Positions 60,001 through 63,000 of a stretch of 64,000 nucleotides of DNA are shown piece after piece. Made by a program: the position numbers. Where the stretch lies: NCBI RefSeq assembly GCF_045037415.1, contig NZ_CP173438.1, one strand, 5' to 3'. Numbering within the stretch: the stretch's first letter is position 1; each line of letters begins with the position of its first letter. The DNA comes from Escherichia coli. GTDB lineage: Bacteria; Pseudomonadota; Gammaproteobacteria; Enterobacterales; Enterobacteriaceae.

Positions 60001-63000
60001 CCGTGTTGAACTCTGTAAAGCCAGTCTTTAGATGCGCCAGGATGCAGAGGTAATCATGAAGCTAACCGATGCGGATAATGCCGCCGATGGCATTTTTTTC
60101 CCCGCCCTTGAGCAAAATATGATGGGCGCGGTGTTAATTAACGAAAATGATGAAGTGATGTTTTTCAACCCCGCCGCAGAGAAGCTCTGGGGGTACAAAC
60201 GTGAAGAAGTCATTGGCAATAACATTGATATGCTGATTCCGCGGGATTTGCGTCCTGCGCATCCTCAATACATTCGTCACAACCGTGAAGGTGGTAAAGC
60301 GCGCGTCGAGGGGATGAGTCGGGAGCTGCAGCTGGAGAAAAAAGACGGCAGTAAAATCTGGACCCGTTTTGCGCTATCGAAAGTGAGCGCCGAGGGGAAA
60401 GTTTATTACCTGGCGCTGGTACGGGATGCCAGCGTAGAAATGGCGCAAAAAGAACAGACCCGACAATTGATTATTGCCGTTGACCATCTCGACCGACCGG
60501 TGATTGTCCTCGATCCGGAACGCCATATTGTGCAGTGCAATCGCGCATTTACCGAAATGTTTGGTTACTGCATTAACGAAGCCAGCGGTATGCAGCCCGA
60601 TACACTCCTGAACATTCCAGAATTCCCTGCTGATAACCGTATTCGTTTACAGCAGTTGCTATGGAAAACCGCCCGCGATCAGGACGAATTTCTGCTGTTG
60701 ACGCGCACCGGTGAAAAAATCTGGATTAAAGCCTCTATCAGCCCGGTTTATGACGTGCTCGCGCATCTGCAGAACCTGGTAATGACATTCTCGGATATCA
60801 CCGAAGAAAGGCAAATCCGCCAGCTTGAAGGCAATATTCTCGCCGCCATGTGCAGCAGCCCACCATTTCATGAAATGGGGGAAATCATTTGTCGTAATAT
60901 CGAATCTGTTCTCAACGAATCGCATGTTTCTCTGTTCGCGCTGCGCAACGGGATGCCGATACACTGGGCGTCATCTTCGCACGGTGCAGAAGTTCAAAAT
61001 GCGCAAAGCTGGTCAGCGACCATTCGTCAGCGCGATGGCGCGCCTGCGGGGATCCTGCAAATTAAAACCTCGTCAGGAGCAGAAACCAGCGCCTTTATCG
61101 AACGCGTGGCAGATATCAGCCAGCATATGGCCGCGCTGGCGCTGGAACAGGAAAAAAGCCGTCAGCATATTGAACAACTCATCCAATTTGATCCGATGAC
61201 CGGTCTGCCAAATCGCAATAACCTGCACAATTACCTCGATGACCTGGTCGACAAAGCCGTCTCTCCGGTGGTGTATCTCATCGGTGTTGACCATATTCAG
61301 GATGTGATTGATAGCCTTGGCTATGCGTGGGCCGATCAGGCATTGCTGGAAGTGGTCAATCGCTTTCGTGAAAAACTCAAACCGGATCAGTATCTCTGTC
61401 GTATTGAAGGTGCGTCTTTTGTCCTCGTGAGCCTGGAAAACGATGTCAGTAACATTACCCAGATCGCCGATGAGCTACGGAATGTGGTCAGCAAGCCGAT
61501 AATGATTGACGATAAACCATTCCCGCTCACCTTGAGCATTGGCATCAGCTACGACGTGGGTAAAAACCGCGATTACCTGCTCTCCACTGCTCACAATGCA
61601 ATGGATTTTATTCGCAAAAATGGCGGTAACGGCTGGCAGTTCTTCAGCCCGGCGATGAACGAAATGGTAAAAGAGCGTTTGGTTTTAGGCGCAGCGCTAA
61701 AAGAAGCGATTAGCAATAACCAACTTAAACTGGTTTATCAGCCGCAAATCTTCGCAGAAACGGGTGAACTGTACGGCATCGAAGCCCTTGCTCGCTGGTA
61801 CGATCCCCTGCATGGTCATGTGCCCCCTTCACGGTTTATTCCTCTCGCAGAAGAGATTGGTGAAATCGAAAATATTGGGCGCTGGGTCATCGCGGAAGCT
61901 TGCCGTCAGTTAGCAGAATGGCGTAGCCAGAATATTCATATCCCGGCGTTATCCGTTAACTTGTCTGCGCTGCACTTTCGCAGTAATCAGCTGCCTAATC
62001 AGGTATCTGATGCAATGCACGCCTGGGGTATTGACGGCCACCAGCTGACGGTGGAAATCACGGAAAGCATGATGATGGAACACGATACCGAAATCTTTAA
62101 GCGCATTCAGATCCTGCGCGATATGGGCATCGGTTTATCGGTAGATGATTTTGGTACGGGCTTTTCCGGATTATCCCGCTTAGTCAGTCTTCCGGTAACG
62201 GAAATCAAAATTGACAAAAGTTTTGTCGATCGTTGTCTGACTGAAAAACGCATCCTTGCCTTACTCGAAGCCATTACCAGCATTGGGCAAAGCCTCAATT
62301 TAACCGTCGTGGCGGAAGGCGTCGAAACCAAAGAGCAATTTGAGATGCTACGCAAGATCCACTGTCGCGTTATTCAGGGATATTTCTTTTCCCGCCCCCT
62401 GCCCGCCGAAGAAATTCCAGGCTGGATGAGCAGCGTGTTACCGCTGAAAATCTGATAAATTCCTCTCGCCCGCACTCGCGGGTTTTTATTTAACGTGACA
62501 CTGTCACTTAAATGCTGTGATTTCCGCTACGTTTAGTTGGACAACGACAACGCATAGCCATGTCAGAACAATCCCTTCTCAGCCTGATGTGATTGTGCTG
62601 ACGCATCAGGCATTCACGCGCCTGACGCGTCATCCGGCAACGCTTTACGATTTCAACTGGTAATCCAGCGTAATTTCCGCTTTCAGTACCTGAGAAACCG
62701 GGCATCCTGCTTTTGCTTTCTGGATAATGCCGTCAAAGGTGGAGGCATCAATACCCGGCACCGCAACTTCGCTCTTCAGTGCGATTTTAGTAATCGCAAA
62801 ACCGGCATCCACTTTATCCAGCGAGACATCGGCGGTGGTATCAATCGATGTTGGCGTGAATCCCGCTTCCCCCAGCATTAATGAAAGCGCCATTGAGAAA
62901 CATGCGGCATGCGCTGCGCCAATCAGTTCTTCAGGGTTGGTTCCTTTTTCGCCTTCAAAACGCGTGTTAAATCCATACGGCTGTTGGTTCAGCACGCCGC

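Follow-up and report, generated by a model that had tools for sequence, protein, structure and literature searches.

In Escherichia coli K-12 MG1655 (NC_000913.3), where the gene order is osmC(+), ddpF-D-C-B-A-X(-), dosP(-), dosC(-), the genes dosP and osmC are separated by ddpXABCDF, which we take to be the D-Ala-D-Ala dipeptidase (VanX homologue) and transport operon of that strain. In the 64,000 nucleotides of E. coli DNA studied here (RefSeq assembly GCF_045037415.1, contig NZ_CP173438.1; hereafter the window), open reading frames (ORFs) and tblastn place a convergent osmC only 189 bp past dosP (62456-62644; Table 1), and the question is what this compact junction records. An initial annotation of the window had correctly described both the K-12 gene order and a spacer of less than 190 bp, and had proposed that the junction was the insertion or deletion point of ddp and that repetitive extragenic palindromic (REP) elements in the spacer might have been the substrate of recombination. 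As detailed below, the junction does record such an event, but a remnant of ddpF lying in it points to deletion and not to insertion, and REP-mediated recombination is not supported.

A ddpF remnant between two K-12-like arms

Alignment showed that K-12 1557101-1563257 (~6.16 kb) is replaced by 69 bp in the source genome, between two arms that are ~97-98% identical to K-12. On the left, the alignment runs unbroken from dosP to 62531-62534 and takes in its stop codon, the terminator and matS, corresponding to the first 76-79 bp of the 257-bp K-12 dosP-ddpX spacer, and ddp-carrying genomes match the junction query only up to the end of this arm (positions 1-632/635). The right arm consists of the last 44 of the 55 bp of the K-12 ddpF-osmC spacer, continues into osmC, and was single-copy in 5180 genomes by blastn. 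Between the arms we found a ddpF relic that covers nt 436-497 of the gene's 927 nt and maps to K-12 1557542-1557603 in the orientation of ddpF, with 50 of 62 columns identical (~81%) and one frameshifting gap; its differences from K-12 amount to 11 substitutions and a 1-bp deletion. The relic was also compared with four ddpF alleles by multiple alignment, and its codons GQRQRIAIARALSSQPDVIVL correspond to the region of ddpF from the ATP-binding cassette (ABC) signature to Walker B. With 62 of 927 nt left and the frame shifted, its coding capacity is lost.

To identify the source of the 69 bp (62532-62600), a permissive blastn was run against 5426 complete E. coli genomes (28 Gb). Exactly one place was hit in each genome, either inside ddpF (4277 genomes; 80-90% identity, E = 2e-6 to 2e-5) or in the same compact spacer (1115 genomes; at least 95% identity). 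In these genomes the query matched none of the other dipeptide/oligopeptide ATPase paralogues, so that ddpF is the specific source of the relic, which moreover lies between dosP and osmC and on the strand of dosP, as ddpF does in K-12. Since a frameshifted piece of ddpF persists in the spacer, ddp was once here and was then lost, and we consider it very probable that deletion of ddpXABCDF left the dosP-osmC spacer as its scar.

Table 1. Coordinates (window positions) of the features discussed in the text.
Feature	Position	Strand	Basis
dosP (oxygen-sensing cyclic di-GMP phosphodiesterase)	CDS (coding sequence) 60056..62455; ORF 60032..62455	+	ORF call, tblastn
Left arm, homologous with bp 1-76 of the K-12 dosP-ddpX spacer	62456..62531	+	K-12 alignment
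Putative intrinsic terminator of dosP: 6-bp G+C-rich stem, 4-nt loop, T run	62468..62493	+	terminator scan
matS consensus site (MatP motif, Ter macrodomain)	62495..62507	.	exact consensus match
TTTAGTT, 7 bases at the left deletion endpoint	62532..62538	+	matches neither K-12 arm
ddpF relic, nt 436-497 of the 927-nt gene, 1-bp deletion	62539..62600	+	blastn, local and multiple alignment
REP-like palindrome GCCTGATG-N14-CATCAGGC	62582..62611	.	regular expression for REP cores, inverted-repeat scan
Hairpin, 13-nt arms (12/13 complementary), 8-nt loop, adjoining the osmC 3' end	62599..62632	.	inverted-repeat scan, fold
Right arm, homologous with the osmC-side 44 bp of the K-12 ddpF-osmC spacer	62601..62644	+	K-12 alignment
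osmC (peroxiredoxin), convergent with dosP	62645..63076	-	ORF call, tblastn

The replacement has four endpoints. Endpoint 1 (GCTACG/ATTCC, the slash marking the break) falls in the non-palindromic dosP-ddpX spacer, endpoints 2 and 3 fall inside the ddpF coding sequence, and endpoint 4 (...GCTAACA/ACGCATCAGGC) is at the foot of the single-copy hairpin that adjoins osmC. At the endpoints there were 0-3 bp of microhomology and neither long direct repeats nor REP pairs. We believe that the ancestor had the K-12-like order dosP-ddpX-A-B-C-D-F-osmC, and that the ~6.16 kb would have been removed by illegitimate deletions at the level of microhomology. As the surviving fragment is internal to ddpF, either two deletions or a single complex event that kept filler sequence would be needed. 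In the former case, one deletion of ~5.65 kb would have run from 76 bp past dosP to ddpF nt 435, taking the ddpX promoter region, ddpX, ddpA-D and ddpF nt 1-435, and a second one of ~441 bp would have taken ddpF nt 498-927 plus 11 bp, down to the foot of the osmC-side hairpin; the 62-bp internal fragment left between them would later have decayed. The number and order of the deletions are what we infer from this arrangement. The dosP terminator and matS would have stood outside the deleted segment and have been present already, matS as one of the regularly spaced MatP sites.

In comparison with known deletion scars of accessory operons, the junction has the usual short, frameshifted, non-coding and syntenic fragment, the collinear flanks and the microhomology at the endpoints. 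It differs from them in that what remains comes from the interior of the last operon gene and is not a terminal stub, and in that this piece is ~19% diverged while the flanks differ by 2-3%. In the K-12 operon, ddpF is the second of the ATPase genes; the relic is its ortholog, judged by where it lies and how it is oriented, but only 62 of ~6100 bp are left and no ddp function can be encoded. Judging from gene content, the Ddp pathway (D-Ala-D-Ala dipeptidase and transport) would not be available to strains that bear the scar. The junction is an ordinary scar of gene loss, of value for annotation and population genetics, and involves no new mechanism.

Distribution, polarity and age of the compact junction

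The initial annotation had suggested comparing the junction across genomes with and without ddp, and this comparison disclosed two forms. The compact junction was present in 1116 of the 5426 genomes (20.6%), Nissle included, and 4271 genomes kept ddp (80% or more of the K-12 segment, with identities of 96.6-100%). The remaining few dozen genomes displayed other states, such as one insertion of the insertion sequence IS1 and one partial osmC match, and no intermediate form of the junction was found among the 5426. Five compact junctions taken across the range of identity, and from two flanking haplotype backgrounds, had identical breakpoints and an identical relic, which implies a single origin. 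These exact breakpoints can be used as a lineage marker.

The opposite polarity, namely that the compact junction is ancestral and that ddp was inserted toward the K-12 lineage, would find some room in the variability of this interval across the genus. In E. whittamii there is an unrelated compact spacer of 141 bp without an intact matS; in the divergent Escherichia E69, a split pseudogene of an omptin-family protease (PF01278; ORFs of 215 and 82 aa; 12440-13700 of the examined stretch) replaces ddp; and in E. albertii NBRC 107761, an osmC cut after codon 119 directly adjoins the dosP stop (10990-11080 of the examined stretch). However, for a fragment of ddpF to lie within the compact junction, ddp must have arrived first. 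Moreover, E. coli ddp is at most 3.4% different from that of K-12, like core genes, and among the GTDB species representatives, the cryptic-clade genomes Escherichia sp. E1V33 and SCPM-O-B-8794, in which dosP is 10-13% different from that of K-12, carry ddpXABCDF directly after dosP, which makes ddp at this position older than E. coli. We therefore give almost no credence to an insertion. By the deletion reading, the polarity of a common presence/absence polymorphism of E. coli is fixed: ddp was lost, not gained, in ~21% of the complete genomes.

Judged from these sequences, genes have been lost repeatedly from the dosP-osmC interval in the genus. In Citrobacter amalonaticus it holds 9.5 kb of other genes. 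The two cryptic-clade genomes mentioned above have, after ddpF, genes for a LysR regulator, two coenzyme A-transferase subunits and a thiolase (an ato-like cluster; 13735-17348 and 14865-18478 of the examined stretches) that E. coli does not have at this position. The ddpF-osmC spacer of E. coli may in turn mark a loss that happened earlier. E. albertii NBRC 107761 also presented an internal deletion that fuses DosC residues 1-352 to DosP residues 453-799; its dosP-osmC and dosC-dosP deletions are independent events in the same interval.

Besides the B2-type haplotype, the compact junction was found in a second one, of type GPEC1165, in ~75 genomes that come mostly from poultry and have an intact dosC. 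Along ~4100-6650 of the examined stretch (window ~59877 to ~62600), GPEC1165 differs by 0-1.3% from the B2-type, and outside this tract it is 2.5-4% away from both B2 and K-12 (digH, osmC, bdm-sra, maeA). On the right, the boundary of the tract is no more than ~13 bp from where the relic ends. This pattern suggests that a tract of ~2.7 kb, comprising dosP and the scar, may have been transferred between lineages by recombination. According to the distances, the GPEC1165 haplotype represents a third deep lineage. We considered assigning it to sequence type (ST) 117 (phylogroup G) on the basis of genome names such as O78:H4 APEC, and did not adopt this because O78:H4 occurs in ST23 (phylogroup C) too. 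Nothing usable was found in the literature on the phylogroup distribution of ddp or on matS coordinates.

Several points weigh against a simple deletion. First, the relic is only ~81-82% identical to every extant E. coli ddpF, and a simple recent loss would predict less decay than this; divergence from K-12 in the flanks is 2.3-2.8% (dosP) and 2.3% (osmC). Second, the 7 bp next to the left endpoint were assigned to neither arm nor clearly to ddpF; they are possibly the decayed ddpF codons F-S-G, the alignment to ddpF being ambiguous there. Third, two deletions or one complex filler event must be assumed, and none of the 5426 genomes carries only one of the two. The age of the allele was examined in this context. 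Of the 11 relic substitutions, 7 are at third codon positions, which is an excess, and three or four of the third-position changes match the ddpF states of the cryptic clades. The seven substitutions unique to the relic are spread over the codon positions roughly as neutral decay predicts. The ~19% divergence of the relic, three synonymous states in which it agrees with a cryptic-clade allele against K-12, and the near identity of the ~2.7-kb tract in the B2-type and the poultry lineage are the basis for a variant of the explanation, in which the compact allele would be an old structural polymorphism that is older than part of the radiation of E. coli, or entered by introgression, and was then moved between lineages by homologous recombination. 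We regard this as unlikely, although not negligible. That the hairpins of the spacer act as a co-opted terminator would be a further possibility. An attempt to establish an ancient allele from the divergence of the relic itself was abandoned: when the changes unique to the relic are set aside, ~4 of 62 sites differ from K-12, a pattern that is suggestive of an old allele but falls short of significance in so short a segment.

Palindromes of the spacer

E. coli REPs are imperfect palindromes of 30-40 nt, preceded 5' of their foot by a GTAG that is highly conserved; they belong to types y, z1 and z2, reach ~584 copies in K-12 and are mostly paired in bacterial interspersed mosaic elements (BIMEs) (PMC3333891). 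The spacer contains three overlapping inverted repeats (62562-62602, 62582-62611 and 62599-62632), and in this sense the palindromes noticed in the initial annotation are real. The middle one, GCCTGATG-N14-CATCAGGC, is a unit of 30 nt with perfect 8-bp arms and no stem mismatch, and is one of only two in the 64-kb window that fit a loose REP-core pattern. Together with the position of the right-hand endpoint against the foot of a hairpin, a structure that could have led to slippage, this match would favor a model in which REPs flanking ddp recombined and left the spacer as a hybrid REP/BIME.

The remaining evidence makes such a model very improbable. The feet of the spacer palindromes carry neither GTAG nor CTAC; GTAG is absent from the whole spacer, and CTAC occurs in it once (62528-62531), upstream of the three palindromes and ~30-70 nt away from their feet. 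The GCCTGATG arm is not extragenic in origin, as REPs should be, but ddpF coding sequence: it is made of the relic codons CAG CCT GAT GTG (Q-P-D-V), which align to CAG CCT GAC GTG in ddpF, and K-12 ddpF has GCCTGACG where the spacer has this arm. Dispersed copies were not found either, the relic (E up to 1) and a 49-bp right arm (E up to 10) each being in one place per genome, with a sensitivity that is limited for segments of ~20 nt in 28 Gb. Finally, the left endpoint in K-12 is without a palindrome, and two of the endpoints are inside the ddpF coding sequence. The copy of the K-12 annotation that we used lists no REP features and was thus not usable as a REP test. In summary of the likeness, the spacer shares with REPs and BIMEs the G+C-rich imperfect palindromes, the arms of the GCCTGATG/CATCAGGC type and the position between convergent genes; in contrast to them, it has no GTAG/CTAC tag, is single-copy, has one coding arm and no partner inverted REP (iREP) at BIME spacing. 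Membership in the REP families, and hence REP-mediated recombination, is not supported. The initial annotation had itself stated that palindromes outside these families would refute its proposal, and its recombination substrate is replaced here by non-REP endpoints with only 0-3 bp of microhomology. We conclude that the REP-like palindrome exists because the deletion put ddpF codons beside CATCAGGC, and that the joining of a coding fragment to a hairpin can produce a REP-like look by chance.

The osmC-proximal hairpin (62599-62632) occurs in K-12 too and is a candidate for a terminator, or for a hairpin that stabilizes RNA, shared by the convergent genes. In Nissle (~3700-3730 of the examined stretch), the changes A>C and C>G, equivalent to window positions 62605 and 62626, are at the sole mismatch of the 13-nt stem, and this compensatory-looking double change makes the osmC-side stem perfect.

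Could the relic then have been co-opted, forming with the osmC-side hairpin a new double-hairpin terminator or insulator of the convergent genes that is kept by selection? The + strand of the spacer does fold well above shuffled sequences (z = -4.4), three of the four relic changes at first or second codon positions raise the complementarity of the 62562-62602 repeat, and the double change in Nissle points in the same direction. Nonetheless, when random sets of 7 substitutions were placed on the inferred ancestral relic (3000 sets), the fold was at least as strong as the real one in 44% (+ strand) and 95% (- strand) of them, and the real relic was no more stable than its inferred ancestor. In addition, natural variants disrupt the hairpins of the relic, with a 1-bp deletion in Nissle and FCI1 and a G>A change in Z1323PEC0014, and the terminator scan found none on the - strand. 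Co-option is accordingly quite improbable in our opinion. The narrower idea that selection or quasi-palindrome correction built the relic hairpin was also discarded, as there was no gain in stability over the 3000 random sets and the stems are broken in natural variants.

The dosP terminator, matS and flanking genes

The left arm contains the other two elements that had been noticed in the initial annotation, a terminator of dosP and a consensus matS, and both were located. The hairpin GCCCGC-ACTC-GCGGGT (62468-62483) begins 13 nt past the dosP stop and is followed by TTTTTATTT. The same hairpin appeared in the predicted fold and is conserved in K-12 and the cryptic-clade genomes; with its T run, it agrees with the sequence criteria for an intrinsic terminator, so that it is putatively the terminator of dosP. 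Immediately downstream, GTGACACTGTCAC is an exact fit to the 13-bp palindromic matS consensus GTGACRNYGTCAC. What did not stand is their description as features of the junction: both belong to the arm common to ddp-carrying genomes, and their presence at the equivalent K-12 position means that they pre-existed outside the variable segment.

According to what is reportedly the work of Mercier et al. in 2008, matS and MatP are the system that organizes the Ter macrodomain. The same matS was found at the same position in K-12 (1563282-1563294, which we take to be inside the Ter macrodomain), Nissle, Escherichia sp. E1V33 and SCPM-O-B-8794, and its distance to dosP is equal in genomes with and without ddp. 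There are three matS-consensus sites in the window versus 0.01 expected from shuffles, and this density of 3 per 64 kb is of the same order as the published frequency of one per 35 kb, with 23 sites and the consensus GTGACRNYGTCAC (PMC6907758). The site thus resembles those of the matS/MatP system in being perfect, in its location in the terminus region and in its conservation at the orthologous K-12 position, and no difference from them was detected in the sequence of this predicted site. By these comparisons it is a conserved matS, presumably bound by MatP, and a chance neighbor of the scar; a matS beside a structural variant may be unrelated to it.

The other two perfect matS sites of the window (15807-15819 and 25188-25200) both read GTGACGTTGTCAC. 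In K-12 1555500-1616900 only one other matS was observed (1600472-1600484), and one of the window sites may therefore sit in DNA that is absent or diverged in K-12. At the position of the present matS, E. whittamii displayed only a half-site (ATGAC...; 7590-7625 of the examined stretch) and E69 nothing recognizable, so that this matS is not conserved across the genus.

Concerning the rest of the locus, the window ORF is 98.9% identical to K-12 DosP over 799 aa by tblastn, and RefSeq genomes with identical DNA have it labeled as dosP; the osmC ORF is 100% identical to K-12 OsmC (143 aa). Chance ORFs across the spacer had no Pfam match and are left unannotated by RefSeq, and an Rfam search disclosed no known structured RNA within or near the spacer. 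Upstream of dosP, nearly all of dosC is deleted in the source genome and in Nissle (window 59822-60028). The homology with K-12 upstream of dosC ends at window 59821 (K-12 1567186), ~46 bp 5' of the dosC start, and the leftover consists of codons 406-460 only, at 59865-60028. As a consequence of this deletion, dosP is directly behind the dosC promoter region. Since the GPEC1165 lineage has the ddp scar together with an intact dosC, the losses of dosC and ddp are independent.

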